Source of the DNA: a virus
Lineage: Duplodnaviria > Caudoviricetes
Virus record (IMG/VR): IMGVR_UViG_3300020434_000055
Strand: one strand, 5' to 3'
DNA length: 64,000 bases
Part shown: one piece after another, positions 3,770-49,665 of the stretch
How positions within the stretch are numbered: position 1 is the stretch's first letter
Layout of the letters: each line of letters opens with the position of its first letter
Program-made: the position numbers and the translations under genes
The notes under the pieces: model-generated
Databases searched by the model: none
Seen by the model: the letters and a program-made list of their open reading frames with translations, nothing else
Told to the model about the DNA's origin: nothing

Positions 3770-3794
3770 CAGTTCGATAATAAATACTCATATT

Positions 3795-4424: not shown

Positions 4425-4463
4425 TGGGCGAATAAATCGATCCGCCCACTAATAAAAGTTAAA

Positions 4464-7957: not shown

Positions 7958-8189
7958 CTTCTTCTCTCGCTTTTCTTGAATATTCTTCTAATGCTTCTTC
8001 TTCCTCTTTCATTCTTCGTTCAAATTCTGCAAACTTATATTCATCAGTTTGTTCGTAAAGTTTAGTTTCCCACTTATATATTATATTTGTAAGACTTTGA
8101 AAATGAGGATTGGATTGAGCTACCAAATCATTCCTAACTTTTCTTATATCGTCCAATATTTGTTTTACAAAATAATATGACTCACTCAT
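7950..8189 (-). CDS. Hypothetical helical protein
   Basis: ORF track; overlaps both neighbours, consistent with an operon. Confidence 0.6.
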   Translation of the reverse strand: MSESYYFVKQILDDIRKVRNDLVAQSNPHFQSLTNIIYKWETKLYEQTDEYKFAEFERRMKEEEEALEEYSRKAREEDE

Positions 8190-8733
8190 AATCTTCCCAA
8201 CCTTCGCATTTGACTAATGCATTCATTGTCCATCGTTCTCCTTCACCTTTAAAAGCATATGTTGTTTGAAATATATTAGAACGCATAATAATCATTGTTC
8301 CAGGTCTTGGTGGAATATATTGTTGGCGTTGTGGTAATATCAAATCTACTCCTCCGGTTTTATCAACATAGTCAGTATCAGTCTCAGGTAACTTAATATG
8401 TTCTGGTAACTTTAGAAATACAATTATAAACAAATGATTTCCTTTGTCAACGTAATTGTTTACCGGCTTATATTCATGTTGTTTTTGGATATCCAACCAT
8501 TTATGTGTAATTTGGTTAGATGTTGCTGGTTTTAAAATTTCTTCTTGAAAATGTTTAACAGAATTAAGTAACAAATTATCGTGTGTTTGTCCTCCCCAAT
8601 TAAATGTACCCTTTGTTACTTTTGTCATAAACGCACCTTCCCTTGTAGGGTAACTAGACGTTAAATTAGTTGCTTCATGAAACATACTATCTTGAGCATC
8701 TTTATCTACGGCATAGCAAATATATTTTCTCAT
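8182..8733 (-). CDS. 2OG-Fe(II) oxygenase-fold protein lacking the iron ligands
   Basis: Aligns by eye to 7235-7957 but has KPVNNY for QPMHHH and IFQTTYAF for LLHTSYPF. Confidence 0.65.
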   Translation of the reverse strand: MRKYICYAVDKDAQDSMFHEATNLTSSYPTREGAFMTKVTKGTFNWGGQTHDNLLLNSVKHFQEEILKPATSNQITHKWLDIQKQHEYKPVNNYVDKGNHLFIIVFLKLPEHIKLPETDTDYVDKTGGVDLILPQRQQYIPPRPGTMIIMRSNIFQTTYAFKGEGERWTMNALVKCEGWEDYE

Positions 8734-10340: not shown

Positions 10341-11006
10341 ATGACTAAAGTAGAATTTGATCCATACCTAGACGGTAAAAAAGTTTTCAACCCAGACATG
10401 ACAGTCGACATTAAAGACTTCATCGGAGTATTCGAAAAGGCTTATACTAAAGAATGGTGTGAATCTGCTATAAGATATTTTGAAAGAATGGACAAATTAG
10501 GATTCGGCAGATCAATTCAGGAAATAATAGGAACACCCAGACATTTAAAAGATACTAACAATTTTAATACATCTAGATTATACAGCCAAGGAGAAAATAT
10601 GTTGAGTATCGTAGGAGTTCCTGCAATACAAGATGTATTCTTAGAAACGTTTTGGTCTTGTTATAATGGAATATACAGACAAATGTTTTCATCATTACAA
10701 CCAGTTGAAACTGCTCCGCAAATGGTTTATGAAATGAAAATTCAAAAAACAAAACCGGGCGAAGGTTATCACGTTTGGCACTGGGAACAGATGAGTAGAT
10801 CAGATGTAACTAGATTTATGGTTATCCAAGTGTTCCTAAATGATGTTGAAGAAGGTGGCGAAACAGAATGGTTATACTATCCTCGAAGAATCAAAGCAAA
10901 GCAAGGAACATTATTAATTTTCCCTGGTAATTATACTCATACACATAGAGGTAATCAACCATTAAATGGATCTAAATATACAATTAATACTTGGCTAGAA
11001 TTTTAG
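10341..11006 (+). CDS. 2OG-Fe(II) oxygenase (prolyl-hydroxylase-like)
   Basis: KIQKTKPGEGYHVWHWE, YLND-like FLNDVEEGGETEW, GTLLIFP..YTHTHRG, SKY.INTW. Confidence 0.88.
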   Translation: MTKVEFDPYLDGKKVFNPDMTVDIKDFIGVFEKAYTKEWCESAIRYFERMDKLGFGRSIQEIIGTPRHLKDTNNFNTSRLYSQGENMLSIVGVPAIQDVFLETFWSCYNGIYRQMFSSLQPVETAPQMVYEMKIQKTKPGEGYHVWHWEQMSRSDVTRFMVIQVFLNDVEEGGETEWLYYPRRIKAKQGTLLIFPGNYTHTHRGNQPLNGSKYTINTWLEF

Positions 11007-12959: not shown

Positions 12960-13622
12960 TTAAAGGTTTACTTGACTGGCTCCTTCACCTACTGTTCCTC
13001 GAACAAAACAATTAAATGCTAAAGACCATCTTATTGTATTTTCAGTTAAGTTAGGACTAACACTATGTAATAAGTGACTAGGAAACATAACCAAGTCCCA
13101 CATTTTTGGTTTGAAAGACCAACCTTCTGCATTATAAACATTTAAATCTATTTCTGTTGGATCACCATAATCTATTCTGGCTGTGTCTGTAAAAACATTC
13201 CTCCACATTCTATCTTTATGAAAATTAATATTTCCTGTGTCTCCTATATGTGATAGGTATAACACTCCGCTAATCAAAGAGTTGGCATGAGAGTGTTCCC
13301 CACTCCAATCATTTCGTTCGTATTTGTTCATCCAACTAGTCTCCATTACAAATGTATGTTTTTTATCTACGCCTAAAAAATTATGTACATAACTATCAAG
13401 TTTAAATTGAACTTCTTCTTTTAATGGTTTACAAATAAGTTCGTCTAAAACATGAACATTAGTTGTATTTTGAGCATTAGAATATAAATGTGGTTTGTAT
13501 TCCAAATTCTTAAGATAATCTATAATTTCATCACTGACAGGATTTATATTAGTTTTGCATAAAGGTATTGCAAATAAAGGTGTTACTTCATTATCGGTAA
13601 CGTGTTGTTTTGCTGTAGTCAT
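12960..13622 (-). CDS. 2OG-Fe(II) oxygenase-like protein (TIGR02466-like)
   Basis: TPLFAIP, SWMN, HSHANSLISGVLY, LVMFPSHLLHSV, SLAFN. Confidence 0.88.
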   Translation of the reverse strand: MTTAKQHVTDNEVTPLFAIPLCKTNINPVSDEIIDYLKNLEYKPHLYSNAQNTTNVHVLDELICKPLKEEVQFKLDSYVHNFLGVDKKHTFVMETSWMNKYERNDWSGEHSHANSLISGVLYLSHIGDTGNINFHKDRMWRNVFTDTARIDYGDPTEIDLNVYNAEGWSFKPKMWDLVMFPSHLLHSVSPNLTENTIRWSLAFNCFVRGTVGEGASQVNL

Positions 13623-14182
13623 TATTTAAAATTAGGTCCAGTAAGCCACCCTGTCATGCTTATTCTATTTCCTGATGTAACCGGTTCTACACCATGCAAG
13701 GTATATGGTGGAAATACAACAACCGATCCTTTTTTCATATCAATATATAATCTATTATCTTTATGGAAATCATATTGAATATAAAACTTTCCGCCTTCAA
13801 ATTCATCATTAAGAAGAGCTACCACTGATAGTTTACGACACATACCATTATCAAAATACATTGTGTCTTGATGACCATCATAATGATCTCCTTCTTTATA
13901 AAATAACAATTCAAACTGTGAAGGGCCTGATAAAACATATTTCCAAACACTATCATTAGCTTTATTTGTTAGGCCATATAAAGTTAAACAAATTGGATCA
14001 AATTCATCAAGGTGTACCATTGTAACACTTCTTATGGCTTTGTCTTTAGTTTCTTCTGAAGCTATTTCTCCTTCAATTCTCTTTTTATCTTCAGATCTTT
14101 TTATAGTTAAATCTATAAGTTCTGTAGGAAGAGTACCTCCCGGAAATTCCCAATAAATATTTTCTCTAATTGGTTTAGTCAT
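13622..14182 (-). CDS. 2OG-Fe(II) oxygenase (PKHD-type hydroxylase-like)
   Basis: Y.EGDHYDGHQD, RKLSVV.LLNDEFEGG, GSVVVFP...HGVEPVTSGNRISM.GW. Confidence 0.9.
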   Translation of the reverse strand: MTKPIRENIYWEFPGGTLPTELIDLTIKRSEDKKRIEGEIASEETKDKAIRSVTMVHLDEFDPICLTLYGLTNKANDSVWKYVLSGPSQFELLFYKEGDHYDGHQDTMYFDNGMCRKLSVVALLNDEFEGGKFYIQYDFHKDNRLYIDMKKGSVVVFPPYTLHGVEPVTSGNRISMTGWLTGPNFK

Positions 14183-17746: not shown

Positions 17747-17998
17747 ATGAAATGGATAATAATTTTGTTTTTTATTTTTATATTTGGTTTGCCTATGTAC
17801 GCCTATTATTCGGTAAGCAGTGGACATTTCTTTCAAGTTAACGCAGGGTGTAAAGAGTGTACAGTAGAAGCAGTTGAAAAAATAAAGGCAAAATTAAAAG
17901 CAGAAAATAATATACGAGTAGAAAAAAATAAAAAAGCACTTCATGACGGAACTTATAAAGCAAAACCGTGGGCCGGGTGGCCGTGGGATAGAGAATAA
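17747..17998 (+). CDS. Small membrane-anchored hypothetical protein (CxxC)
   Basis: Hydrophobic N-terminus, GCKEC. Confidence 0.6.
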
Positions 17999-19437
17999 TG
18001 GAACAAGACAAAATACTTAGAGAACGATTTAAAAAAAAATACGAAGCAGGGTTCACTACTAATGTTGAATCAATAACATTACCACCTGGACTTGATGAAA
18101 GTGTTATAGAACAAATCTCAAAAATTAAAAAAGAACCTAAATGGTTACTTGAATTTAGATTAAAAGCATATGAAAGATGGAAATTACTTAAACAACCTGA
18201 CTGGGCTAATCTTGAAATAGAACCAATAGACTATCAAACCATATCATATTATTCAGCACCCAAACCAGGACCCAAGTCATATGATGATGTCGATCCTGAA
18301 ATTAAAAAAGACTTTGAAAAACTTGGTATACCTTTAGGGGAAAGAGCCCAACTTGCAGGTGTGGCTGTTGATGCCGTATTTGATTCTGTATCTGTTGCAA
18401 CTACGTTTAAAGATAAACTAGCAGAACTAGGAATTATATTCTGTCCATTTTCAGATGCAGTACAAAATCATCCAGACCTTGTAAAAAAATATATGGGATC
18501 AGTTATACCTATAAGTGATCATTCATTTGCCGCTTTAAATTCTGCTGTCTTTACAGATGGTTCATTTGTATATGTTCCTCCAGGTGTAAGATGTCCTATG
18601 GAACTATCAACATATTTTAGAATTAATGCGGCTAACACAGGACAATTTGAAAGAACATTAATTATAGCCGATGTAGGAAGTTATGTAAGTTACCTTGAAG
18701 GATGTACTGCTCCAATGAGAGATGAGAGTCAATTACACGCCGCTAATGTAGAACTTGTAGCACTTGATAATGCAGAAATAAAATACTCAACAATACAAAA
18801 TTGGTATCCAGGAGATCCTGTAACAGGTAAAGGTGGCATATACAATTTTGTAACTAAACGTGGAAAATGTAAAGGAAAAAATTCTAAAATTACTTGGACA
18901 CAATTTGAAACTGGATCACGAATAACTTGGAAGTATCCATCGTGTTTGTTAATGGGTGACAACTCTGTAGGAGAATTTTATTCTGTTGCACTTACAAACG
19001 GTAAACAACAAGCAGATACAGGAACTAAAATGATCCATTTAGGTAAAAATACTAAAAGCACAATTATTTCAAAAGGAATATCTGCAGGACATTCTAAAAA
19101 CACATACAGAGGACTTGTAAGAATTTCTAAGAATGCAAGTAACTCAAAAAATTTTACACAATGTGATTCATTAATGTTGGGTAGTCATTGTTCTGCTAGT
19201 ACAGTACCTTATATTGAAAATAAAAATTCAACAAGTAATTGCAGTCACGAAGCCACAACATCTAAACTAGATGATGAACAATTATTTTATATAATGTCGA
19301 GAGGATTAAAAGACGAGGATGCTAGAAATATGCTCGTAATGGGTTTCTGTAAAGAAGTATTTCAAAAACTACCAATGGAATTTGCCGTAGAGGCTAATAA
19401 ACTATTAGAAGTTAGTATGGAAGGAGCAATAGGATAA
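17998..19437 (+). CDS. sufB: Fe-S cluster assembly protein SufB
   Basis: [66 protein letters not shown]. Confidence 0.97.
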
Positions 19438-23868: not shown

Positions 23869-24545
23869 TAAAAAATTATCCTTGTAAGTTTTTTAGCACA
23901 ATCTTTCATACCATTAGTATGCCATACAATATTCTTCTTGGGTACAGCAGTATATAGTTCTATCTTTTTTAATTCTGGGTCACGAAGTTCTTTATCAGTA
24001 TCTAAACATAATGCATCAGGGTGTATACCTAGTTTCATTGCTTCTTTAGTTACGTGTTGTACAGGTTTAGTTTTTAATTCTCCTGCTTTTTCTAAATATG
24101 GTACTGGTGCATATAAAATAATCTTTACATTTTCACGCATACGCATTTCTCGTATTGATTCCAACACAACCAAGTTTTCCATATCACCTACATTACCACC
24201 TATAACTGTAATTGTTTTATCAGCATTTGTATTAACTATCCATTGTCTTATTGCTTCTGTAACGTGCGGTGTGACTTGTACTGTAGCACCTAAATAATCT
24301 CCTTTACGTTCTTTAACAATTATATCATCCATTATTTGTCCAATGGTTATGTAATTGTTTGTTTTAGGTTTTAGAACATTTAAACAAGGATCAAGATACT
24401 TGTAGGAAGAACTTCCTTTTATATTTTTTTGGATTTCTTTTGCGAGACCGACTTTATTTAGAGCTGAATGAACACCACTTACAATTACGCAATGGGTTTT
24501 ATTTTTTGTCCTTGTCGTCTTTTTTGACTTCTTCAAAGTCTGCAT
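23868..24545 (-). CDS. Truncated, degenerate CTP synthase (PyrG) synthetase domain
   Basis: [48 protein letters not shown] retained; P-loop degenerate; internal deletion; no glutaminase domain. Confidence 0.8.
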
Positions 24546-26418
24546 CTACAACATCTTCTTTCTTGCCATCATCTTTTGGTGTTTCAGTAGTTGTTTCTCC
24601 TTTACCTTGATCAGGTTGAGAGTCTTTGTATACTGCTTCACCTAGTTTCATGGAAGCACTTACTAGGTCGCTAACTTTTTTCTTAATGTCTTCTGAGTCA
24701 GTTCCTTTAAGTGATTCTTGTAGAGCTTCTTTTGCCTTAATGATATTCTCTTTATCTTCTGCAGATATCTTTTCACCGTGTTCTTTTAAATTCTTATCTA
24801 CTTCGTGTAATATAGAATCTGCCTGGTTTCTACTATCAACTTCATCACGTTTCTTTTGATCTGCCTCTTTATTAGCTTCAGCTTCTTTAACCATTGTCTC
24901 AATTTCAGCTTCAGTTAATCCACCATCTGATTTGATTGTAATTTGTTGTTCTTTACCTGTGCCTTTATCTTTAGCAGATACACTTAAGATACCATTTGCA
25001 TCAATATCAAATGTTACTTCAATTTGTGGAATGCCTCTTGGTGCTGGTGGAATTCCTTCTAGATTAAAACTACCAAGCATTTTATTATCAGCCATCATTT
25101 GTCTTTCACCTTGAGCTACTCTAATTGTAACTGCCGCCTGATTGTTTTCGGCTGTAGAAAATATTTGACTTTTCTTTGTTGGTATTGTTGTATTCTTTTC
25201 AATTAATTTAGTTGTAACTGCTCCTAGTGTTTCAATACCAAGTGATAAAGGTGTTACGTCTAATAACAATACATCTTTAACATCACCTTGTAATACTCCA
25301 CCTTGAATTGCGGCACCCATTGCCACTACTTCATCTGGATTAACTCCTACGTGTGGTTCTCTACCAAAGAAACTTTTAACTGTTTCAACAACTTTTGGCA
25401 TACGAGTCATACCACCTACTAACACTACTTCACCTATTTGATTAGCATTCAAGCCAGCATCTTTTAATGCTGTTTTGCAAGGTTGAATAGTTCTTTTAAT
25501 TAAATCTTCTACAAGCAATTCAAATTTTGCTCTTGTAAGTTTTACGTTTAAATGTTTTGGTCCTGTTTTATCAGCAGTAATAAATGGCAAATTAATATCT
25601 GTTTGAGCTGTAGAGGATAATTCACATTTTGCTTTTTCTGCCGCTTCTCTAACTCTTTGGATCGCCATCTTATCTTGTGTTAAATCGATACCGCTATCCT
25701 TTTTAAATTCTTTTGCTAGATAATCTGTTAAAACTCTATCAAAGTCTTCTCCTCCTAATGTTGTATCTCCATTAGTAGATTTAACTTCAAATACTCCGTC
25801 ACCTAATTCTAATATTGAAATATCAAATGTACCACCACCTAAGTCGTACACTGCAATAGTACCTGATTTCTTTTTATCTAAACCATATGCAAGTGCCGCC
25901 GCCGTTGGTTCATTTATAATTCTTTCTACTTCTAATCCTGCAATAATTCCTGCATTCTTTGTTTCTGTTCTTTGTCTATCATTAAAGTATGCTGGTACAG
26001 TTACCACAGCTTTTTTAACTTCTTGACCGAGATATTTTTCTGCGGTCTCTTTCATCTTCTGAAGTACTTTTGCTGAAATTTCTGTTGGTGAATATTCTTT
26101 GCCGTTTGCTTTAACCCAAGCATCACCTTTTTTAGACTTAATAATTTCGAATGGTAGTGTTTTAATATCCTTTTGAACTGCTTCTCCTTCAAAAGTTCTA
26201 CCTATTAATCTTTTGGTAGCGAAAATCGTATTTTTGGAATTACCAACTGCTTGTCTCTTCGCTGGTGATCCAACTAACGTTTCGTCGGCTGTAAAAGCAA
26301 CTACCGATGGAGTAGTCCTTGTTCCTTCATTATTCTCTAGTACTTTGGCGTCCTTGCCTTCCATGACAGCAACGCAACTATTGGTAGTACCTAAGTCAAT
26401 ACCTATAATTTTACTCAT
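24499..26418 (-). CDS. dnaK: Chaperone DnaK (Hsp70)
   Basis: [65 protein letters not shown]-terminal DADFEEV. Confidence 0.99.
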
Positions 26419-32342: not shown

Positions 32343-33545
32343 ATGGTACCAATAGATCCCTTCAAAAAAGTTATCGACACATTAAAAGCGAACGGCAATT
32401 ACAGAGTTTTTAACGATGTATTGCGAGAAGCCGGACATTTTCCTAATACAATTTGGTATGGAAAACATAATATTAAAAAAGTAATTAATTGGTGTTCTAA
32501 TGATTATTTAGGCATGGGTCAGCATAAAGTTGTTATGGACGCAATGAGAACAGCATTAGAAACTACAGGTGCGGGTAGTGGTGGAACAAGAAACATATCA
32601 GGGACATCACATTACCATGTAGCTTTAGAAATGGAGTTAGCAAAACTTCATAAAAAGCCAGCATCACTTTTATATACATCAGCCTTTGTTGCAAATGAAT
32701 GGACATTAATTTCTCTTAAAAAAATTATTCCAGATATAGAATTTGTTAGTGATAGTGAAAACCATGCTTCTATAATAGTAGGTATTAAAAATAGTAGAGC
32801 ACTTAAACATATATTTGAACATAATAATTTAGAAGACTTAGAAAAAAAATTAAAACAAGTAAAAGGTACACCTTGCGTAATATTTGAATCTGTATATAGT
32901 ATGGACGGTGACATAGGACATATTAAAGAAATTTGTGATATTGCAGACAAATATAATGCAATAACATTTATTGATGAAGTTCATGCAGTTGGATTATACG
33001 GTCATGAAGGTGCAGGATTTTTAGAAAAATTAGGACTACAAGATAGAGTAGATATTGTTTCTGGTGGCTGTGGTAAAGCATTTGGAGTAGTAGGTGGTTA
33101 CGTTGCCGGAGATGCCACAGTAATAGATGCAATCAGATCTGTGTCTTCAGGATTTATTTTTACTACTAGTAATAGTCCAGTAATATGTGCAGGTGCATTA
33201 GCTTCTGTAAAATTTCTTAGAGATGACGGCGGAAGAGAATTAAGACAACAACACCAACAAGCGGCAAGTCAATTAAGAAAGTTATTATTAGATGCTAATA
33301 TTGATATGGGCACCTCTACATCACATTTAATTCCAGTAATGGTTAGAGATCCAATTAAATGTAAAAAAATGAGTGACGCTTTATTATTAGAACATGACAT
33401 TTATGTTCAGCCTATAAATTCTCCTACGGTTAAACCTGGGACAGAACGATTAAGATTTGCTCCAACACCTTTACATTCTGAATCTATAATACATGATTTA
33501 GTAGACAAACTAAAGAAAGTTATGTTACAATTAGAAAATGAATGA
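32343..33545 (+). CDS. hemA: 5-aminolevulinate synthase (C4/Shemin pathway)
   Basis: NYRVF, WCSNDYLGMGQH, GAGSGGTRNISG, SDSENHAS.I.GI, FESVYSMDGD, DEVHAVGLYG, GKAFGVVGGY, GFIFTT, YVQPIN.PTV..GTERLRF. Confidence 0.96.
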   Translation: MVPIDPFKKVIDTLKANGNYRVFNDVLREAGHFPNTIWYGKHNIKKVINWCSNDYLGMGQHKVVMDAMRTALETTGAGSGGTRNISGTSHYHVALEMELAKLHKKPASLLYTSAFVANEWTLISLKKIIPDIEFVSDSENHASIIVGIKNSRALKHIFEHNNLEDLEKKLKQVKGTPCVIFESVYSMDGDIGHIKEICDIADKYNAITFIDEVHAVGLYGHEGAGFLEKLGLQDRVDIVSGGCGKAFGVVGGYVAGDATVIDAIRSVSSGFIFTTSNSPVICAGALASVKFLRDDGGRELRQQHQQAASQLRKLLLDANIDMGTSTSHLIPVMVRDPIKCKKMSDALLLEHDIYVQPINSPTVKPGTERLRFAPTPLHSESIIHDLVDKLKKVMLQLENE

Positions 33546-34197
33546 ATCCGATTATAAAATAACCCCATTATGGGCAACGCCTTTATTTCAATCGACTCTT
33601 AAAAATATACCACAAGAGTGTAAAGACTATATTATGAAAAACGTTGAGTATAAAAGATATCCTGCTAATAATGGATTTGGATCAAAAAGTAAATTCTTAT
33701 TAGATATTCAAGCTCTTGCTCCACTTAAAAAAGTATTAACAGATGTTACACATGAATACCTTTATAAAATATTAGACATAGACGAATCCGCAGATTTTCA
33801 AATGACTAACAGTTGGTCCGTAAAACATATAAAAGGAGATGAGGCTGGACAACATCATCATGCTAATTCTATGTTAAGTGGAATTTTATATCTTCAAACC
33901 GATGAAAAAACCGGTGATGTTTTATTTGTTAAAGAAAGAAATCATTTTCCGTTATTCAATGATACAATACAAATTCCTTTTAAAGGCAACAACTATAACT
34001 TATATAATGTAGAAGGATGGGCAATAAAACCCAGAAACAATCAATTATTGTTATTTCCTTCACAACTTAGACACGAAGTATATCCAAACGAAAGCGATAC
34101 TGAAAGATATTGTATTGCTTTTAACTTCTTTGCATTTGGCAAATTTGGCTATGACGACCAAGTTCAATTAGGTATTAAAGATGTCACCCGTGACTGA
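33538..34197 (+). CDS. 2OG-Fe(II) oxygenase-like protein (TIGR02466-like)
   Basis: TPLWATP, SW, HHHANSMLSGILY, LLLFPSQLRHEV, RYCIAFN. Confidence 0.88.
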   Translation: MNESDYKITPLWATPLFQSTLKNIPQECKDYIMKNVEYKRYPANNGFGSKSKFLLDIQALAPLKKVLTDVTHEYLYKILDIDESADFQMTNSWSVKHIKGDEAGQHHHANSMLSGILYLQTDEKTGDVLFVKERNHFPLFNDTIQIPFKGNNYNLYNVEGWAIKPRNNQLLLFPSQLRHEVYPNESDTERYCIAFNFFAFGKFGYDDQVQLGIKDVTRD

Positions 34198-35044
34198 TAA
34201 AATTATTATAGGAACCCGTGGCAGTAATTTAGCTTTATCCCAAGCTCGAAGTATTCAAAAATTATTAGAAATTGATTCCGAAATAAAAATTATAAAAACA
34301 TCTGGGGACATCCATGAAAATAAAGCTATTGCTGATATAGGAGGCAAAGGTGTATTTTCAACACAAATTGAACAAGAATTATTAGATTCAAAAATAGATT
34401 TAGCTGTTCACAGTTTAAAAGACCTACCAGGCATAATGACAAAAGGTTTATGTATTAAAGGTGTTGCAAAAAGAAATGATCCCAGAGATGCATTGTTAGG
34501 AAAAATTAAAAAAGGATCTAAAATTGGTACTAGTTCTCCTAGAAGAACTGCCCAATTAAATTATATAAAAAAAGATATAGAAATACTTCCTATTAGAGGT
34601 AATATAGATACTAGAATTAAAAAACTTAAAGATGGACAATATGACGCAATAATATTAGCAATGGCTGGTTTACAAATGCTTGGTTTAGAAAACGAAGTTG
34701 ATAAAATATATGATCTTGATGAAATAAAACCTTGTGCAGGACAAGGCATCATCGCAATACAAACTAGAGACAACAATGATCCTTTAAATGATTTAATTAC
34801 CAAAATAAATGACATACCAACATTTTATCAAGCCCAAGCAGAACGTTCCTTGCTAGAAGCAATTGGAGGGGATTGTCATACTGCATTAGGATGTTATACT
34901 ATGGTATCGGCCTACCATCTTTATCTAACAAGTGAACTATATGTAAATGATAAAAAATATACTGCATCTGGTTCTGGTAATGTTATTGATGCCAAAGACC
35001 TTGGAATCAGAGTTGGTAAAGAATTGTTAGCTCAAACAGACTAA
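34181..35044 (+). CDS. hemC: Porphobilinogen deaminase (hydroxymethylbilane synthase)
   Basis: IGTRGSNLAL.Q, IKTSGD, GGKGVF, DLAVHSLKDLP, DPRDAL, IGTSSPRR, IRGNIDTR, LAMAGL, GQG, GGDC. Confidence 0.96.
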   Translation: MSPVTDKIIIGTRGSNLALSQARSIQKLLEIDSEIKIIKTSGDIHENKAIADIGGKGVFSTQIEQELLDSKIDLAVHSLKDLPGIMTKGLCIKGVAKRNDPRDALLGKIKKGSKIGTSSPRRTAQLNYIKKDIEILPIRGNIDTRIKKLKDGQYDAIILAMAGLQMLGLENEVDKIYDLDEIKPCAGQGIIAIQTRDNNDPLNDLITKINDIPTFYQAQAERSLLEAIGGDCHTALGCYTMVSAYHLYLTSELYVNDKKYTASGSGNVIDAKDLGIRVGKELLAQTD

Positions 35045-35687: not shown

Positions 35688-35813
35688 AATTTCTAATATT
35701 TATTTTTTTATTTTTTAGACTATTAACGAATAACACATAACAGCATTGTTATATGCGTACATTATACTACAGTTATGATTTAAGTTAAATACACTTACAA
35801 GAGGGAAGGGAGT

Positions 35814-38800
35814 ATGTCAGACCATTCAATTGGAAAAATTACAATTGCTGATGGTATCGTTGTAATTCAGCGAGATAATCAGTCTATAGAACTACAAGAA
35901 GGTGATTCTATCTATCTTAATGATATTGTAGAAGCTAAAAGCGGATCTGTTGGTATTACATTTACAGATGAAACTACATTTTCTATAGATGCAGGTTCTC
36001 AAGTAGTTGTAGATGAATTTGTTTACGATCCTGGTAACACAGGATCAATGAATATAAATGTCTTGGCAGGAAACTTCTCTTACATATCTGGGGAAATTTC
36101 TAAAATGGATGGTGACGTAGAAATTGTAACCCCAACTGCTACACTTACAGTTCAAGGTACCAATGTAGCAGGTAAAGTATCATTAGAAGGTGGTGGAGAC
36201 CAAATCGTATTACTTCCTAACGCAGATGGAACAGTAGGACAAGTTTTAATTACCAACCAATCAGGTAGTATATTATTAACTGAAGCATTTCAATCTACAA
36301 CAATTGCATCTGCTTTTATGCCACCAACTGTTCCTGTAATAATTCCTGAAGAAATTGTATTAAAAGAATTTGGTACTACAATTAATACTATGCAAAAAAT
36401 AAAAAAATTAGCAAAACAAGAAGCAGAAGAGGAAGTTGAAGAGGAAGTTGAAGAAGAAATTGAAGAGGAAGTTGAAGAGGAAGTTGAAGATCCATTTGAG
36501 GAAGAAATTAACGAAGAAGAATTAGAAGAATTAGAAGAAGAATTAGAAGAAGAAACACAACCAGTTGTTGACGAAGAAGTGGTTATTGAAGATGATATAT
36601 TTGAAGAAGAGCCAATTGTTGAAGAACAAGAGGATCAACCTGTCGTAGAAGATACAGTTATAGAAGATGAAATTATAAACGATGAACCTGAAGAGGAAGA
36701 TACTACAACAGAAGAGGATACTACAACAGAAGAAGAGGATACTACAACAGAAGAAGAGGATACTTATATACCACCTGTTATTCCTGACCCTGATCCTCCT
36801 GTTATTGAAGAGGACGAAGAAGAAGACATTTATGTACCACCTGTTACTGAAGAGGAAGATAACGACACTTATGTACCACCTGTTACTGAAGAAGATGAGG
36901 AAGAACCGGAAGTTAATGAAGCACCAACATTTGAAACAACAAGTGCTGTATCAGTTGCAGAAAGTCTTTCTAATGGATCAACTCTTGTTACTATGTCAGC
37001 AACAGATCCTAATACAGATACATCATTAAACACATTAACATATTCAATTACAGCAGGAAATGATGAAGGTAAATTTGCAATTAATTCATCAACTGGTGTA
37101 ATAACATATGCGACACAGGCGTCTACATTAACAACTCAAACATTTGAAAGTTTTTCTAATGGAGCAACAGCAACAGGATGGTCTGGTGATAATGCAGTTT
37201 TAGATACTAATAAATGGACAACTGTACTAGGAAAAATTAATGGTAGCATAAGTTCAACTCAAGACGTTTATAAAACATTTGACTATTCATCTGATTACGC
37301 AGGAAAAAGAGTTGCAATAGACTTTTTGTTTTGGGAGTGGGGTACTTGGGACGCACACAATTACAATCCAGATGGTGGAACAGAACAATTCCGTGTATAT
37401 GTTAATGATACAAATGTTGTTGCTGATGACAGACGTAAAGATGGATTTGGTGCAGGTGATAAAAAATATGGAGTAGAAACACAAAGCACTGGTTGGGATC
37501 CAGTACAAGATTCAAGCTTCTACGGTGACCAAGAAGGAGAACTTTATACAGTATATGGCACACTGGACGCAAGTGGAGATTTAAAATTAGGGTTTGGTAT
37601 GCGAGTTGGTGAAAGTGAATCCAATGAATCAGGAGCAATAGATAATTTAAAAATTTACTTAACAGATTTAAACTACGAAGATAATCAACAATATGTATTA
37701 ACCGTTCAAGCAAGTGATGGCAGTTTATCTGCAACCACAACACAAACAATTAATATAACAGATGTAAATGAAGCACCAAGAATGGAAGAAGCCAGAGATC
37801 CTGTATCAGTTGCTGAAGATACTGCTGACAATACAAACATAGCATCAATTTTTGCAGAAGATCCAGACGGTGACGATATTACATATTCAATTACAGCAGG
37901 TAATACAAATAGCAAATTTTCTATTACGTATTACAATTCTACAAATTCAGGTTTAATTGAAACAAACGGATCAATAGATTATGAAACAACACCACAATAT
38001 ACTTTAACTATAACAGCAACTGATGAAGGCGGTTTAACTACAACTACAACACAGGTTATTAATGTAACCAATGTTAACGAAGCACCAACTCTTGCTAGTA
38101 TGAATAATGTATCATTAGCGGAGAGTGTAAGCTCAGGTACATCAGTTGCAACTGCTTCGGGTTCTGATGTTGATGCAAGTACAACTTTAACATATTCAAT
38201 TTCATCTGGAAATAGTGCAGGCAAATTTGCAATTAATTCCAGCACAGGTGCTATTACTACTGCGGCATCACTAGATTATGAAACTACAACATCTTATACG
38301 TTAGTGGTTCAAGTAAGTGATGGATCTTTAACAGCAACTACAAATCAAGTTGTTAATATAACCAATGTTACAGAGCAATTCCAAGGAACAGCTAATTCTG
38401 GTACAGCGGCTACCTGGGGAGCAAATTTTAGTAATGATATGGTATTTGACAACGCATGGGCCAATGCCAAAATAGGATTTTTTGGTGACTTCCATAACTT
38501 TTCTACTTCTGAAAAAAATGTCATAACAAATATAGCAGAGGACTCTGCTGTAGGATTTGATGATGCCTTACACTTCGCTGACGGCTCAATAGACAATTAC
38601 ACATTTAAAGAGTTGTCAAACTATTCTATGGTTGTTGACTCTACGATAAGTGCATCAAATACATTTGACGATGAAGCATTAGTTCTAAACTTGTTAAGAG
38701 CAGGAACCACAGTAATGGTTGTAGGAGAGAACGCATATTGGGACATCGGCAATCACGCCAGTAATATGAAAATAGAATACATGGCAGATTTAATTGACAG

Positions 38801-39794
38801 TGACATAGATACTAACAATCGTCTTAGCATATTGAGTGGTTCAGATTCTGGAGGTTCTCCTACAGAGGGTCAAGAAATACAATCGGCCTACAACGTATCC
38901 TCTTATGGTGCAGATGATTCTGGCAGTTACGATACATCAAGAGGAGATGGACACGCCTTACCAGGTCGATTCCACGAAGAACATTTAGGATCAGGAGATC
39001 TTATAGCAATTGAAGACGATGGAGCATCCGTCGGAGAAAGACACGGTCACATCGCAGAATGGGACAAAGATGATTCAGACGCAGAATTCTTTGGTGCATA
39101 TATTGGACACGCAGACGGAAACGCATTTGAAAACTCTTGGGACGGCGACGGTAGAGTACAAGCAGACATATTTAAATGGGGATTAGAACAAAATCAAAAT
39201 GTAGATATTATAACAACCGACACAGAATATCTACCAATTGGTGGTTTAAAAACAACATATGGTTGGACCAATACTGCCAATAATACTAAAAGTTCTGTTG
39301 AAGCATTTCATATGGGTAACAATGTTTATATTGGAGGAGGTTTTGATCACTTAGATTGGGTGTGGGATGATTCAGCAAATGCGGCATTCATTGCTGTAAA
39401 CACGGACATGGATGGTGCAGATGAAAACGACGCTCCAACAAGACAAGATGACCATTACCTTGTTATTGGTGCTGATATAGATGGTGATGCAAATCTTTGG
39501 GAAACTACTGACGTATTTGATTTAGATAAAATCGGACTTTGGTCTGATTCGGACGACTTTTTAACACAAGACTCTGATGCTTCAGGCGATTACTACTTTA
39601 AAATTACACCGGTTACTTACGCAAACAGTTCATGGACAGTAGAAACTGATAATACAGTCACAATAGCTGATACATCAAATTATTACAATACAGGATACAT
39701 AGATTTAATGTCTAACTCAGATTTCCAAGACATTAACTACGCAATAATTGAAACGGAATCTGCTTTGATTTCAGATGTACTCGTAACTTATTAA
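35814..39794 (+). CDS. Giant FecR-domain / acidic linker / cadherin-repeat protein (putative T1SS-secreted adhesin)
   Basis: N-terminal FecR-like region (TPTATLTVQGT), Glu-rich linker, three VNEAP-initiated cadherin repeats with LDYE motifs; no signal peptide. Confidence 0.85.
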   Translation: MSDHSIGKITIADGIVVIQRDNQSIELQEGDSIYLNDIVEAKSGSVGITFTDETTFSIDAGSQVVVDEFVYDPGNTGSMNINVLAGNFSYISGEISKMDGDVEIVTPTATLTVQGTNVAGKVSLEGGGDQIVLLPNADGTVGQVLITNQSGSILLTEAFQSTTIASAFMPPTVPVIIPEEIVLKEFGTTINTMQKIKKLAKQEAEEEVEEEVEEEIEEEVEEEVEDPFEEEINEEELEELEEELEEETQPVVDEEVVIEDDIFEEEPIVEEQEDQPVVEDTVIEDEIINDEPEEEDTTTEEDTTTEEEDTTTEEEDTYIPPVIPDPDPPVIEEDEEEDIYVPPVTEEEDNDTYVPPVTEEDEEEPEVNEAPTFETTSAVSVAESLSNGSTLVTMSATDPNTDTSLNTLTYSITAGNDEGKFAINSSTGVITYATQASTLTTQTFESFSNGATATGWSGDNAVLDTNKWTTVLGKINGSISSTQDVYKTFDYSSDYAGKRVAIDFLFWEWGTWDAHNYNPDGGTEQFRVYVNDTNVVADDRRKDGFGAGDKKYGVETQSTGWDPVQDSSFYGDQEGELYTVYGTLDASGDLKLGFGMRVGESESNESGAIDNLKIYLTDLNYEDNQQYVLTVQASDGSLSATTTQTINITDVNEAPRMEEARDPVSVAEDTADNTNIASIFAEDPDGDDITYSITAGNTNSKFSITYYNSTNSGLIETNGSIDYETTPQYTLTITATDEGGLTTTTTQVINVTNVNEAPTLASMNNVSLAESVSSGTSVATASGSDVDASTTLTYSISSGNSAGKFAINSSTGAITTAASLDYETTTSYTLVVQVSDGSLTATTNQVVNITNVTEQFQGTANSGTAATWGANFSNDMVFDNAWANAKIGFFGDFHNFSTSEKNVITNIAEDSAVGFDDALHFADGSIDNYTFKELSNYSMVVDSTISASNTFDDEALVLNLLRAGTTVMVVGENAYWDIGNHASNMKIEYMADLIDSDIDTNNRLSILSGSDSGGSPTEGQEIQSAYNVSSYGADDSGSYDTSRGDGHALPGRFHEEHLGSGDLIAIEDDGASVGERHGHIAEWDKDDSDAEFFGAYIGHADGNAFENSWDGDGRVQADIFKWGLEQNQNVDIITTDTEYLPIGGLKTTYGWTNTANNTKSSVEAFHMGNNVYIGGGFDHLDWVWDDSANAAFIAVNTDMDGADENDAPTRQDDHYLVIGADIDGDANLWETTDVFDLDKIGLWSDSDDFLTQDSDASGDYYFKITPVTYANSSWTVETDNTVTIADTSNYYNTGYIDLMSNSDFQDINYAIIETESALISDVLVTY
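36426..36765 (+). repeat. Coding tandem repeats in the acidic linker
   Basis: 12-nt GAAGAGGAAGTT x5 (EEEV) from 36426; EEDTTT x3 near 36690-36765. Confidence 0.85.
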
Positions 39795-39798
39795 AATT

Positions 39799-41487
39799 AT
39801 GAACAAACTTATTATAACATTATTATTTTTCCTTTTATCCTTTAGCTGGAGTCATGCAGAAATTGAAGGCTCAGATGGATGTACATGGAAAGTAACTGAA
39901 GAAACAGATGAATATATAATGGAGAGCTGTGGTACTAATAATGCTAGGATCAGGCAAAAACATTCTATTGAAATGACTTATGTACCAAGCAAAGAAAAAC
40001 TAGTAAATCCTATAGACAAATTTAAAAAAATTGTTATAACACCAGAGGGAAAAGAAACTGAAAAAGAAATTAAAAAAATAGAAGAGGATATTACAATTAC
40101 AGAAAAAAAAGTTAAAGAGATAATTACAGATAAAGCATTAGAAGAAAAACAAATTATAGAAAGTGGAAAAAATGAAAAGATTATCAACGAAACAAAAGAT
40201 TCGTCAACTACGGATATTAAAGAAGAGATTAAAAAGAAAGAAACATTAACTTGGCAACGTCTCTATCAACTACTTCCAAGTCTTATTGTAAAAAACGAAA
40301 AAGTAAAAGCCGCAGAATTAGATTACGAAGCGGCGGTAGAAACATTAAAGAAAACGTATTCAGCATACTATCCACAAGTAACAATTACATATGGACATAA
40401 TTGGGAAGACGATAGAACACCATCAAAAAGTTCTACGGCTGGAGTTGATTCAATAAAAAATGATGGAAAACATGGCTACCAATCATCTATAACAATCACA
40501 CAAATGATTTGGGACTTTGGACGAACTAATTCTTTAATTGATATGGAACGAACAAAGGCTCAACAAACTTACTTTCATTTAGAACTTGCAAAAGAAGATC
40601 TTGTAATGGAGGCTATTAGTGCTTGGTTAAATTTAATGAAAACCTATAATGTACATGAAGCAAATAAAAAAATAGAAGCCAATGCATTGAAAACACTATC
40701 CATGACGATAGAAAAAGTTAAAAAAGGTGAAGCATCTAAATTAGAACAACTACAAATTGAACAGCAATATAGAACTTTCCAAACATTAACAATGACAAGC
40801 CAGTTAGCAGTTGATTCAGCAAAACAACGATTCCAAAATGTTTGGAGATTTAAACCTCTTGATGTTGCTAATATGCCTATGCCAATTACAGACTTGTTAG
40901 GATTAATACCTGATTCAGGAGCATCTGTAAGAAGTAACACTACATTAAAAATTGCAGATGCAGATATTGAAATTGCACTAGGGCAACTTAGATATGATAA
41001 CGCAGAGTTTAAACCAAGAATAGATGGTAAATTATCTTACACAGAAAAAGAAGGTGAACTAGGCGGAGCATACAATGAACAAAAAGAAGAGTGGAGAGCA
41101 GATATTACATTAAGTTGGAAAATATTTGGTGGATTTTCTAACGTACATCAAAAAAGAAGTGATATGGCAAAACTAGGTTCTGCAGAACTTAGATATGAAG
41201 ACGTTGTAAGAATTGTAAATGAACAATTTAACAATGCTTGGAACAATTACGTATTAGTTGAAAAGAACTTAGAAACACTAAAAAGAACTGTTGAAATTAA
41301 CAAAGAAATGTATGCCTTAACACTTGAAGATTTTAAAGCAGGTAACTCTCCTATCATAGCTGTATTTGGAATGAAGACAGCATATATCATGAGCGAAGTT
41401 GCTTACCAAAATGCACAAATTGACCTTTTAATAGCAAGATATCAATTACATAAAGTTCTTGGACTCGTAGATCCCATCTTCAACTAA
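39799..41487 (+). CDS. TolC-family outer-membrane efflux protein with N-terminal extension
   Basis: Signal peptide; YSAYYPQV, QMIWDFG, ISAWLNL, FKPRID, WKIFGGF, YQLHKVLG. Confidence 0.85.
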   Translation: MNKLIITLLFFLLSFSWSHAEIEGSDGCTWKVTEETDEYIMESCGTNNARIRQKHSIEMTYVPSKEKLVNPIDKFKKIVITPEGKETEKEIKKIEEDITITEKKVKEIITDKALEEKQIIESGKNEKIINETKDSSTTDIKEEIKKKETLTWQRLYQLLPSLIVKNEKVKAAELDYEAAVETLKKTYSAYYPQVTITYGHNWEDDRTPSKSSTAGVDSIKNDGKHGYQSSITITQMIWDFGRTNSLIDMERTKAQQTYFHLELAKEDLVMEAISAWLNLMKTYNVHEANKKIEANALKTLSMTIEKVKKGEASKLEQLQIEQQYRTFQTLTMTSQLAVDSAKQRFQNVWRFKPLDVANMPMPITDLLGLIPDSGASVRSNTTLKIADADIEIALGQLRYDNAEFKPRIDGKLSYTEKEGELGGAYNEQKEEWRADITLSWKIFGGFSNVHQKRSDMAKLGSAELRYEDVVRIVNEQFNNAWNNYVLVEKNLETLKRTVEINKEMYALTLEDFKAGNSPIIAVFGMKTAYIMSEVAYQNAQIDLLIARYQLHKVLGLVDPIFN

Positions 41488-41510
41488 TAAAATCATTAAA
41501 TACAACTATA

Positions 41511-42263
41511 ATGAAAAGTCTAATTCAACATCTATCCCGCGATAAAAAAACTGCTTTGATGTTATTAATCAGTAGTTTAATTATTGGTATATGTGCATTG
41601 ACTCCTGCCTTATTTGTAATCATTGTATTAAACAAGTATCTTGCATCAGGGATTACAGCAACTTTAATATCGTTAACAGCAGGGGCCGTATTAGCTTTAG
41701 GTTTTGAATTCACATTTAGACAAAATAGATCAATAATGATGCAGGAATTTAATCGAAAAATTTATGATCCATTACTAAAAGCATTTGTAGAAAAATTAAA
41801 AACAGTTCAAAATTTACCTACTAACGAATTTAAAAAATTAGATGGTGCTGGTACTATGATTAAAAATATGCGTACCTCATCAGTTACTAGTTGGATATTG
41901 GATTGGCCATTTGTATTATCATTTTTAATAGTTTTAGTTTTTATAAACTGGACCGCGGCTGTTATAACTGCAATTTTTATGATTATATTAAACAGAGTTA
42001 TTACATGGAGAACAAATTTAAATCTTACACAAGATTCTATGTCTAGTGTTGAAATCCTTATAACTGGATTATTAACATTGTCAATTATTGCCATTGGAGC
42101 ATTAATGATTATGCAAGGACGTTTAGATGTTGGAACTTTAATTGGATCTAACATATTAGCCGCGAGAGCATTACAAGGAACAAACAAATATACAAAAGCA
42201 AAGGAGTTTATACAACAACGTGATAGAGCAGTCTCAGAAATCGTCAGTTTCGTCAAGCAGTAA
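41511..42263 (+). CDS. T1SS ABC transporter membrane domain only (no ATPase domain)
   Basis: SSLIIG..AL.PALF...VL, TL..L..G....FEF..RQ.R, LDWPF, G.LDVGTLIG..IL..RAL; ends without Walker A/B. Confidence 0.8.
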   Translation: MKSLIQHLSRDKKTALMLLISSLIIGICALTPALFVIIVLNKYLASGITATLISLTAGAVLALGFEFTFRQNRSIMMQEFNRKIYDPLLKAFVEKLKTVQNLPTNEFKKLDGAGTMIKNMRTSSVTSWILDWPFVLSFLIVLVFINWTAAVITAIFMIILNRVITWRTNLNLTQDSMSSVEILITGLLTLSIIAIGALMIMQGRLDVGTLIGSNILAARALQGTNKYTKAKEFIQQRDRAVSEIVSFVKQ

Positions 42264-42945
42264 ATTCTTTTTAGGAATTACAGCTTTATTTGTAGCATTC
42301 ATAGTATGGATGTGGTTTGCTAAAGTAGATATTACTACTCAAGCAGTAGGATATGTTGTACCTGAAAGTAATTTTACTTCCATAGACACAATGGTTAATG
42401 GACAAGTTATTGAAGTAAAAGTTAAACAAGGTGATTCAGTTAAAAAAGGAGATGTAATTCTTATTATTAATCCAGGTGTAGGTTATGAACCTTATAATGT
42501 AATTGCTAATATAGATGGACGAATACAAACTTTAAATTATAAAAATCCTGGAGCAGTTGTTAATAAAGGTGAAACCATAGTGTTACTAGTCCCTGTAAAT
42601 CAAAAGTTAATTGTAACAGGTAAACTATTTGTTAAAGATAGAGGCTATGTTGAAGTAGGACAATCAGCAAAAATTAAACTTGCTAATCAAGATCAATTAA
42701 AATTTGGACCTATTGATGCAACAATAATATCTATATCGCCAGATGCAGTACAATCACAACAAGGAACTTGGTATGAAATAGAATTAGAACTTGAGCAACA
42801 AAAATTTACTTCAGGTAGTATTGATTATACATTAGTGCCGGGTATACAAGTACAAATCTTTATATTAACTGGTGAAAGAACAATATTAAGTTATGTTACT
42901 ACACCATTCCATAATAGTATAGGACAAGCCTTACAAGAAAGATAA
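42220..42945 (+). CDS. HlyD-family membrane fusion protein lacking the alpha-helical hairpin
   Basis: TM anchor, VKVKQGDSVKKGDVIL, IDGRI, PGAVV..GE.I..LVP, GQSAKIKL, ISPDA, PG..VQ..I.TGERT.LSY. Confidence 0.85.
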   Translation: MIEQSQKSSVSSSSKFFLGITALFVAFIVWMWFAKVDITTQAVGYVVPESNFTSIDTMVNGQVIEVKVKQGDSVKKGDVILIINPGVGYEPYNVIANIDGRIQTLNYKNPGAVVNKGETIVLLVPVNQKLIVTGKLFVKDRGYVEVGQSAKIKLANQDQLKFGPIDATIISISPDAVQSQQGTWYEIELELEQQKFTSGSIDYTLVPGIQVQIFILTGERTILSYVTTPFHNSIGQALQER

Positions 42946-48021: not shown

Positions 48022-49665
48022 ATGTCAAAACTTTTAACAAGCAAATGGGCAGTTTGTATCACTTTATTGATTCTTTTACTCATTAAGTGGGCAGACCCAA
48101 CCCCTATTCAATCAGCAAAACTTACGACCTTTGATTCTTATCAAAAATTTGGACAACACCTTGACTCAAAGAGCTTAATTCTGTTAGATATATCCGATGG
48201 ATCCTTAACAAAAGGAGGTCAATGGCCTTGGAAACGAGATAACATAGGTCGAGTAATAGTTAATGCATATCGCAATGGCGCCGCCTTGGTAGTACTTCAA
48301 GTCGTATTTGCACATAAAGATAGGCTAGGTGGAGATGAAATGTTTCTTAAAATGATTTCAAGATATCCAATTATCCTTACTGAAACTAATGATGTTAAAA
48401 ACTTGCTCAGCATTGAACGAAAAGCACTTGCAATAGGTAACGTAGATGTACCTGTTGATATAGATGGCACAATAAGAAAACTTCCACTTGAAAATTCTAT
48501 TCCAGAAGTAGTACTAAAAGTAATCAAGTTTCCTACTAAAGCAAAAAATGACATATGGATAGACTTCCGTCATCATATTCCAAGAATAGATGCTACTGAT
48601 AAAGACTGGTCAGCAATGAAAGGCAAAATAGTTTTTATTGGAACTACATTTAAAGGTTCAACATTTGTTACTACTCCTAATGGCTTAAAAAATACACACG
48701 AGATAATGGCTATTAGTACTGAAACATTATTGTCAGGCAAATTTATTAGTAGACCAGATTGGCTAGAAAAAATGGAATGGGCATTTGTTATTATAGGAAG
48801 TATACTATTTCTAATTTTAATTCCAAGACTAGGTGTCCTATGGAGTTTTGTACCTATTATAGTTTATCTAAGTATTGTCCTTGGAGCAAGTGCTTACCTA
48901 TGGACAACAAATCTATATCTTACAGAATGGTTAACACCTGTTGTAATTGTTACCTTTGTTTGGGGACATTTAATATACAATAATTTTGCACGTGAGAACA
49001 GATTAAAATTACAAATCAAAAGACAGTTTGAACACTACCTTGCACCCGACATGGTTAAGAAGTTACAAAAAGATCCTTCACTATTAAAACTGGGTGGCGA
49101 AACAAAAACAATGACATTTATGTTTTCAGACATACGAGGCTTTACTCCTATATCAGAAAAATTTAAAAGCAATCCTGCAGGACTTACAAAACTTATTAAC
49201 AGATTCTTAACACGTATGACAAATGTTGTAATTGCTAATAATGGAACTATAGACAAATTCATGGGCGATTGTATTATGGCATTTTGGAATGCACCAATTG
49301 ACGTTAGAGATCATCAAGGTTGTGCTATTAGAACTGCTTTATTAATGACCGTTGAATTAACTGCATTAAACAAAGAACTAAAAGCAGAAGGACTACCTAC
49401 CATTAACATAGGCATAGGAATTAACACAGGTAAAGCACTTGTAGGAAATATGGGTTCTGATCAACGGTTTGACTACTCTGTAATAGGAGACCCTGTTAAT
49501 CTTGCATCACGTTTAGAAAGTTCTAGCAAAACTTTAGGTGAAACTATAATAATTTCAGAAAATACTATACAAGGCAGAGAGCATTTATACCCTTTTAAAT
49601 TCATAGATAGCATTACTGTTAAAGGTAAAACCGAAAAAATCAAGGTTTATACAATAACAACTTAA
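48022..49665 (+). CDS. CHASE2-domain class III adenylate/guanylate cyclase
   Basis: GQWPW.R, VDIDG.IR, three TM helices, F..YL.P, LGGE, MFSDIRGFT..SE, GTIDKFMGDCIMAFWNAP, IGIGINTG...VGNMGS..RFDYSVIGD.VNLASRLES. Confidence 0.95.
   Translation: MSKLLTSKWAVCITLLILLLIKWADPTPIQSAKLTTFDSYQKFGQHLDSKSLILLDISDGSLTKGGQWPWKRDNIGRVIVNAYRNGAALVVLQVVFAHKDRLGGDEMFLKMISRYPIILTETNDVKNLLSIERKALAIGNVDVPVDIDGTIRKLPLENSIPEVVLKVIKFPTKAKNDIWIDFRHHIPRIDATDKDWSAMKGKIVFIGTTFKGSTFVTTPNGLKNTHEIMAISTETLLSGKFISRPDWLEKMEWAFVIIGSILFLILIPRLGVLWSFVPIIVYLSIVLGASAYLWTTNLYLTEWLTPVVIVTFVWGHLIYNNFARENRLKLQIKRQFEHYLAPDMVKKLQKDPSLLKLGGETKTMTFMFSDIRGFTPISEKFKSNPAGLTKLINRFLTRMTNVVIANNGTIDKFMGDCIMAFWNAPIDVRDHQGCAIRTALLMTVELTALNKELKAEGLPTINIGIGINTGKALVGNMGSDQRFDYSVIGDPVNLASRLESSSKTLGETIIISENTIQGREHLYPFKFIDSITVKGKTEKIKVYTITT

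Follow-up and report, generated by a model that had tools for sequence, protein, structure and literature searches.

A reduced type I secretion gene set without an ATPase domain or adaptor hairpin in a marine viral genome

Gene Content of the Locus

The sequence analyzed here is a 64,000-nucleotide stretch (the window, hereafter) of the IMG/VR virus record IMGVR_UViG_3300020434_000055 (Duplodnaviria; Caudoviricetes). Within it, at positions 39,799 to 42,945, three consecutive genes encode relatives of the three parts of a type I secretion system (T1SS), i.e., a TolC-type outer-membrane duct, an ATP-binding cassette (ABC) exporter, and an HlyD-type adaptor. The trio lies between a gene for a giant protein with FecR-like and cadherin domains and, further downstream, a CHASE2 cyclase gene, in a cassette made up of the following features:

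35814..39794, + strand: giant, acidic FecR-cadherin protein of 1326 amino acids (aa); three PF00028 matches (E 2.6e-42) and a FecR-like N-terminus homologous to bacterial FecR-RTX proteins
39799..40260, + strand: N-terminal extension of TolC, with signal peptide, two-Cys mini-module (Cys28/Cys44), and Lys/Glu-rich arm
40261..41487, + strand: TolC core, outer-membrane duct, full length; PF02321 in two stretches, E 1e-48
41511..42263, + strand: ABC-exporter membrane domain alone, 250 aa; six transmembrane (TM) helices, intracellular loop 1 (ICL1) present, ICL2 and nucleotide-binding domain (NBD) deleted
42220..42945, + strand: hairpin-less HlyD-type adaptor, 241 aa; TM anchor, lipoyl domain, beta-barrel, and PGVGYEP loop
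42947-47934, - strand: inverted curli/FecR block, which separates hlyD from the CHASE2 cyclase gene in the window
48022..49665, + strand: CHASE2-class III cyclase, fifth gene of the cassette; PF05226 and PF00211

The complete TolC open reading frame (ORF; 39799-41487, + strand) encodes 562 aa. Spacing within the operon is tight, with 4 nt between the FecR-cadherin and TolC genes, 23 nt between the TolC and ABC genes, and an overlap of 44 nt between the ABC gene and hlyD. A TAAATA motif is found about 22 nt 5' of the FecR-cadherin ATG (35783-35813), followed by a strong Shine-Dalgarno-like GGGAAGGGAG; a scan for promoters and terminators returned no more sites than were found in shuffled sequence.

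Structure of the Three Proteins

An ABC ATPase and the hairpin-mediated recruitment of TolC are the defining traits of type I secretion, and both are missing from the trio, a clean and stable loss in a natural lineage that is abundant. No Pfam family matched the 250-aa ABC protein at E <= 0.01. The NCBIfam models of T1SS ABC exporters matched it exclusively in their membrane part (TIGR03375 positions 141-300; TIGR01842 positions 2-164), with scores under the curated cut-offs (68.2 vs. 693.1 bits and 37.9 vs. 510.15 bits, respectively). In an alignment with Aquifex PrtD (5L22), residues 5-188 correspond to PrtD residues 12-202, and a second block, residues 193-221, corresponds to PrtD residues 257-285. 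The phage protein stops after TM6, at the point from which a full-length exporter continues into the NBD linker. A multiple alignment with full-length relatives revealed, in addition to the C-terminal truncation, a gap of 56 columns between TM4 and TM5, and both are common to all of the short forms. Judging from this alignment, a second element has been lost besides the NBD, namely the approximately 56-aa ICL2 with coupling helix 2, a loop that couples to the NBD, while ICL1 is retained. The AlphaFold monomer model (pLDDT 87.6, pTM 0.80) contains six long helices, with a TM4-TM5 junction of just three residues (171-173), and its best Foldseek matches were HlyB (8DCK), PCAT1, and PrtD (5L22), at TM-scores of 0.72-0.78 over the query. 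As modeled, the protein keeps the membrane fold of a type IV exporter.

The adaptor has undergone a comparable reduction. The 241-aa HlyD protein matched TIGR01843 (E 4e-51; 174.4 bits, under the cut-off of 208.65) as well as PF13533 and PF13437. Its residues 19-84 align to residues 66-128 of Escherichia coli HlyD (8DCK) and its residues 95-241 to 331-478, so that approximately 200 aa of coiled coil are replaced by about 10 residues (PGVGYEP and a few more). Because the hairpin is missing, the protein also lacks the RLS/RLT tip. The AlphaFold monomer model (pLDDT 86.1) predicts a TM helix (residues 2-33), a lipoyl domain, a beta-barrel, and a short C-terminal helix, with no hairpin, and the top Foldseek match was BesA (4KKU, E 8e-13). 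The PGVGYEP sequence is identical in 14 of 15 viral sequences, and the fifteenth has PGVGYED. The short cytoplasmic tail of HlyD was also considered as a phage-specific loss, and this was rejected, as the tail is equally short in a bacterial homolog (L026).

In contrast to its two partners, the TolC protein has gained sequence. PF02321 was matched in two stretches at 166 bits, TIGR01844 was matched at 123.6 bits (under the cut-off of 225.15), and residues 157-557 align to residues 5-407 of E. coli TolC (428 residues in total). The N-terminal extension of about 135 aa is composed of the signal peptide, a module with Cys28 and Cys44 at its ends, and a stretch rich in Lys and Glu, and the length of this Lys/Glu arm varied in an alignment of 10 viral TolC proteins. 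The arm is absent from the bacterial relatives and was seen only where the HlyD hairpin is reduced.

A preliminary description, made from the letters of the window and a list of its ORFs, had already reported three intact and contiguous ORFs, and both their coordinates and their tight head-to-tail packing on the + strand agree with the present annotation. It had further described an ABC protein that stops after its membrane domain without Walker motifs, as the PrtD alignment and the motif and HMM (hidden Markov model) scans confirmed, and an HlyD whose lipoyl halves are joined by about 10 residues instead of a coiled coil, which was borne out by the E. coli HlyD alignment; the charged TolC extension with two Cys, put there at about 130 aa, is the one measured above. 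The loss of ICL2 is an addition to what had been reported for the ABC protein.

Search for a Motor

Since hlyD overlaps the stop codon of the ABC gene, there is no space for a downstream NBD in the operon, and the search was extended to the rest of the window and to related viruses. Neither a Walker A motif nor the ABC signature LSGGQ was present in any open frame of at least 80 aa in the window. A search of all six frames of the window with an HMM of the bacterial homologs' NBDs gave no match (best E 6.8), and none was obtained in 19 related viral loci, with best E values of 1 to 10 over window and loci; the same model scored SufC, used as a positive control, at 6e-50. In four related viral records of 43-148 kb, Pfam ABC_tran (PF00005) gave one match above the cut-off, which was SufC. 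This protein was rejected as a transporter NBD, since a SufB-like gene lies a few genes upstream of its own. Thus, neither an NBD gene nor a frameshift that would restore a full transporter, the finding that the preliminary description had set against its own reading, was detected in the window or in the 19 related viral loci.

Conservation and Selection in Viral Relatives

The reduced forms recur in marine metagenome proteins and in viral loci. For the ABC protein, a word-indexed search gave 832 relatives, and the top 120 are without exception 249-250 aa long, at least 90% identical, and derived from Tara, ENA, and JGI marine data. HlyD has 1591 relatives, and the best 120 of these are all 240-241 aa. 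The trio as a whole is present in 18 IMG/VR loci, with identities down to 50% for ABC, 52% for HlyD, and 38% for TolC, at equal lengths and with no internal stops. The dN/dS ratios, calculated from two pairs with unsaturated dS (0.22-0.37), were 0.11 and 0.19 for ABC, 0.13 and 0.17 for HlyD, and 0.12 for TolC (vs. L002). These ratios indicate that all three proteins are under purifying selection and are not decaying. The preliminary description had proposed a check of related phages for both deletions, and the losses of the NBD and of the HlyD hairpin proved to be conserved there; the decay of homologs that it had considered did not appear, given identical lengths, the lack of stop codons, and the dN/dS range of 0.11-0.19.

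More distant short forms of the ABC protein were obtained from an exhaustive search of 1.8 billion cluster representatives. These (P0242, P0244, P0245, P0248, P0253, and P0369), at 23-48% identity, all carry both ABC deletions; a search for P0244 in viral contigs gave no confirmed locus. The nearest full-length ABC proteins are PrtD-like exporters of 540-590 aa with 28-38% identity. In a midpoint-rooted tree of the membrane domain, with gap columns included, 15 short forms lie beyond one branch (SH-aLRT 86, rising to 96 without the long-branched L103). This placement is compatible with one origin of the short forms, although it does not prove it.

A deeper viral branch is represented by L103 (IMG/VR, 2708-8387), whose ABC protein is approximately 25% identical to that of the window. 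Its genes encode a FecR-cadherin protein, a 681-aa TolC, a 260-aa ABC protein without an NBD, a 292-aa HlyD, and a CHASE2 cyclase. The L103 TolC has an N-terminal extension of 265 aa, with the Cys module present twice and with EPEVV repeats, and the L103 HlyD retains a mini-hairpin of about 65 residues. Therefore, the loss of the NBD and the TolC arm are common to both viral branches, whereas the full loss of the hairpin is limited to the branch of the window. From its gene and domain content, the L103 cassette looks like an intermediate stage of reduction.

The related IMG/VR viral contigs reach 148 kb and are 29-41% complete according to CheckV. No match to the 13-kb region was obtained by megablast against 50,697 deposited phage records. 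In tblastn searches of deposited phages, ABC and TolC had no match, and HlyD matched ordinary full-length T1SS adaptors only, mostly in mislabeled or bacterial-like records.

Bacterial Ancestry of the Cassette

A scan of one genome per prokaryote species with a single protein gave no match. A profile scan of one genome per prokaryote species with a four-sequence alignment identified 80 bacterial loci (L023-L102), mainly in marine Rhodospirillales, Thalassospiraceae, Magnetovibrio, Sedimenticola, and Maridesulfovibrio. The bacterial ABC proteins are complete (median 564 aa) and carry both Walker A and Walker B, their HlyD proteins are 433 aa with a hairpin of about 195 aa, and their TolC proteins (median 449 aa) are without the extension. 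Bacterial ABC ORFs of 336-358 aa were examined as possible true short forms and rejected, as they are truncated at contig ends. The signature motif of the bacterial ABC proteins is an LSLGIRRR variant instead of LSGGQ, with Walker A and B intact.

A FecR-domain match was found in 20 of the 80 bacterial loci. The 19 complete FecR ORFs among them encode proteins of 782-1502 aa that are very acidic, have no signal peptide, and contain 1-7 RTX-like repeats. In Aestuariispira insulae, the gene order is TolC, a protein with FecR and HemolysinCabind domains, ABC, and HlyD, while in Maridesulfovibrio a CHASE2 cyclase and a TPR protein adjoin the full-length T1SS. Examples of such FecR-RTX T1SS loci are L026:3055-10972 and L097:4010-12447. 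The FecR-RTX T1SS of marine Rhodospirillales, Magnetovibrio, and Maridesulfovibrio is apparently an uncharacterized family. The presence of full-length cassettes with FecR-RTX cargo in these bacteria indicates that the phage cassette is a reduced copy of a canonical bacterial T1SS.

Genes Accompanying the Trio

The order FecR-cadherin, TolC, ABC, HlyD, and CHASE2 cyclase is kept in every viral locus with enough flanking sequence. The FecR-cadherin gene lies upstream of TolC in all eight loci in which the flank is long enough, and the CHASE2 cyclase follows hlyD within about 500 bp in 18 of 18 related viral loci and in L103. The 1326-aa FecR-cadherin protein has a net charge of about -217, a pI of about 4, and no signal peptide, and a 200-residue stretch past the FecR domain alone has a net charge of -91. 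It has no RTX nonapeptides, whereas its bacterial homologs have 1-7. The C-terminal tail is conserved among the phage homologs and carries a hydrophobic motif of the V-x-V type at its end; T1SS signals often terminate in a hydrophobic motif of this kind. The link of a cargo to the secretion genes appears to be kept in the lack of a signal peptide, the conserved C-terminal tail, the extreme acidity, and the tight operon spacing, and the FecR-cadherin protein is a probable cargo or anchored fiber of the trio. In bacteria, genes for FecR-domain proteins and for CHASE2 sensors are known to share operons (PMC5192318).

The inverted block between hlyD and the cyclase gene encodes a secreted 734-aa FecR protein, a 373-aa curlin-like protein, CsgG, and CsgF. 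The cyclase comes directly after hlyD in 16 of 17 relatives. L003 has the same curli block and two cyclases, an arrangement which suggests that the curli block entered the T1SS-cyclase cassette by insertion.

Possible Function and Alternative Explanations

Overall, we favor, tentatively and at somewhat less than even confidence, the view that the trio serves the neighboring FecR-cadherin adhesin as a conduit and anchor, without a motor and perhaps for a single use. The three proteins would form an envelope-spanning gate that threads the polyacidic FecR-cadherin chain to the cell surface, with its C-terminus leading. ATP hydrolysis in ABC exporters chiefly serves to reset the pump for the next cycles, so a phage that threads one fiber once per complex could dispense with the ATPase; the trio might then work as a static or single-turnover conduit in which no resetting enzyme is needed. 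The drive could come from the membrane potential acting on the polyanionic chain, from Ca2+-dependent folding outside the cell, which is the ratchet proposed for RTX proteins, or from both. The link that the hairpin normally makes to the inner-membrane complex may have been taken over by the TolC arm or by direct contact with the PGVGYEP loop, and the candidates for this new connection are the arm and the loop, the latter of which would sit on top of the lipoyl domain. LapA-type adhesins have an N-terminal plug that is retained at the duct, and the N-terminal FecR domain might be a similar periplasmic plug, in reach of the CHASE2 sensor of the cyclase. The full scheme, i.e., ATPase-free transport over both membranes by a T1SS-derived channel that threads a polyanionic adhesin once, with the arm replacing the hairpin and the FecR plug signaling to the CHASE2 cyclase, is a speculative proposal that we regard as unlikely to hold in all its parts.

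Several observations weigh against the single-use conduit. The search for an NBD reached 64 kb of a genome that is probably larger than 300 kb, and the related contigs that were searched are 12-41% complete (CheckV). Compared with its bacterial relatives, the phage membrane domain has gained no acidic or proton-relay residues, and the bacterial cargos are likewise very acidic, so acidity is not peculiar to the motorless form. Cargo recognition in T1SS normally involves the NBD, which is absent here. A TolC barrel of about 100 Å and a lipoyl/beta-barrel ring of about 60 Å, as estimated from solved pumps, together seem short for a typical periplasm, which makes a closed duct doubtful. The AlphaFold models on which the structural comparison draws are monomers.

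It is also conceivable, although we consider it improbable, that the trio transports nothing and is an envelope-spanning tether or sensor frame that positions the FecR domains and the CHASE2 cyclase and so converts surface events into cyclic AMP (cAMP). Such a scaffold would fit with the loss of every energy-coupling element, with the tether-like Lys/Glu arm of TolC, with the pairing of FecR and CHASE2 known in bacteria, and with the position of the cyclase after hlyD in all 18 related viral loci. It would not account for an intact six-helix channel fold or for a C-terminal tail of the FecR-cadherin protein that is conserved like a T1SS signal, and this protein, whose domains are of extracytoplasmic kinds, has no signal peptide and hence needs some export route. 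An energized version of transport, in which the phage membrane domain and short adaptor join mixed complexes with a host ABC ATPase or host T1SS and turn host energy to the phage cargo, appears rather less probable. Mixed assemblies are conceivable, given that several ABC dimers are present per HlyD hexamer in T1SS complexes (8DCK), and ICL1 is kept; yet no member has retained ICL2, the chief coupling loop to the NBD, a partner consisting of a membrane domain only would leave a lone, unpaired NBD under the established ABC mechanism, and the nearest full-length proteins are only 28-38% identical.

A route for small molecules, with the membrane domain acting as a secondary carrier or channel that feeds TolC, for example with the cyclic nucleotide of the adjacent cyclase, is in our estimation quite improbable. 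In its favor, the cyclase gene keeps its adjacent position throughout, cAMP leaves E. coli through TolC, and SbmA shows that the proton gradient can power an ABC-like membrane domain. Nevertheless, the Pfam scan of the 250-aa protein gave no match to the SbmA_BacA family, so that the likeness is functional only, the ancestral cassettes export proteins and have RTX cargo, and the descendant of that cargo is retained upstream in all loci with enough flank. Finally, truncated subunits can poison oligomeric machines as a general principle, and with all energy-coupling parts gone the trio could be a dominant-negative jammer of host secretion or efflux, or a decaying remnant of a captured operon, but both are very improbable. 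Decay is excluded by the selection data, and the dN/dS ratios of 0.11-0.19, the conserved replacement loop, and the equal lengths in hundreds of sequences and across two deep viral branches argue against jammer and relic alike. A jammer would have no need of the TolC and cargo that the phage brings along, and the identity to any bacterial T1SS is only 25-35%.

The preliminary description had left three readings side by side. Its non-canonical conduit fits best with the cargo gene, the phage's own TolC, and the retained C-terminal tail of the cargo; the borrowing of host subunits is weakened, as the ICL2 that would dock the NBD is deleted, and the jammer became unlikely once the module was seen to supply its own duct and cargo.

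Other Genes of the Window and Phage Type

The source is most likely a large marine T4-like phage; neither a capsid nor a terminase gene was encountered. The window also encodes a denV-like endonuclease and an exonuclease; the Gp23 capsid family had no match in four related viral records, and the control likewise matched nowhere. Three cellular-type genes that are unusual for a phage are present:

24499-26418, - strand: DnaK/Hsp70, full length
32343-33545, + strand: class I/II aminotransferase
34181-35044, + strand: porphobilinogen deaminase (HemC)

A SufB gene at 17998-19437 encodes a protein 63% identical to SufB of Microcystis phage MaAM05, and on a related viral contig SufC (L019:1450-2187) precedes a gene that resembles those for TonB-dependent receptors. 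The phage family thus includes members with genes for the assembly of iron-sulfur clusters. In addition, at least four paralogs of 2OG-Fe(II) oxygenases (phrog_81, phrog_61) are found inside 8 kb (6409-7957, 10341-11006, and 13622-14182).

Comparison with Known Systems

Modules of curli (type VIII secretion), FecR, and adenylate cyclase genes are known from marine pelagiphages (PMC7029224, PMC9599517), and the window has a curli block of this kind next to the trio. TolC, HlyD, and type I secretion have no occurrence in either of these two papers, and a full-text literature search found no published description of such a motorless phage T1SS set. Among adhesin systems, the domain order of the LapA model, with its N-terminal plug, matches that of the FecR-cadherin cargo. 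The LapBCE exporter has a full ATPase and a hairpin.

Each of the losses by itself has a counterpart elsewhere. BesA of Borrelia burgdorferi (4KKS/4KKT/4KKU) is a working adaptor that is naturally without an alpha-hairpin (PMC3807786), but its partner is the RND pump BesB, which has a large periplasmic domain able to extend to the duct, and BesA has a membrane-proximal domain. With an identity of only about 21%, its likeness to the phage HlyD is convergent and not a homologous loss. SbmA/BacA-like (SLiPT) proteins have an ABC-related membrane domain without an NBD and are driven by the proton gradient (PMC13316013); SbmA differs in being a peptide importer that stands alone in the inner membrane, with no adaptor or duct partner. 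While the single losses thus have precedents in SbmA and BesA, their combination in a phage T1SS under selection has none. The trio amounts to a natural deletion experiment on the need for the NBD, ICL2, and the hairpin and offers a testable case of ATP-independent or single-turnover export. If export without an ATPase were true, phages would have invented a class of trans-envelope secretion that is new in both its energetics and its architecture. The cassette also suggests that ocean phages re-equip the envelope of the infected cell beyond curli, which bears on aggregation, superinfection exclusion, and cAMP signaling in marine microbes that rank among the most abundant, and the comparison uncovers an apparently uncharacterized bacterial T1SS family with FecR-domain RTX cargo and a link to CHASE2.

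Among canonical systems, the trio is most readily compared with PrtD/PrtE/PrtF (AprDEF) and HlyB/HlyD/TolC, in which TolC, an ABC protein, and a membrane fusion protein likewise stand beside an acidic cargo that has no signal peptide. As in PrtD, the phage ABC protein begins straight at TM1, with no C39/CLD domain. Unlike PrtDEF and HlyBD, the phage set lacks the NBD, ICL2, and the adaptor hairpin, its TolC is armed, its probable cargo has cadherin repeats in place of RTX repeats, and it is encoded by a phage. The bacterial FecR-RTX cassettes come closer still, with nearly the same gene order and with the nearest sequence relatives of all three phage proteins, including 30-40% identity in the C-terminal half of HlyD. 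They differ from the phage cassette in their full-length ABC and HlyD proteins, their armless TolC, and the RTX repeats of their cargo.

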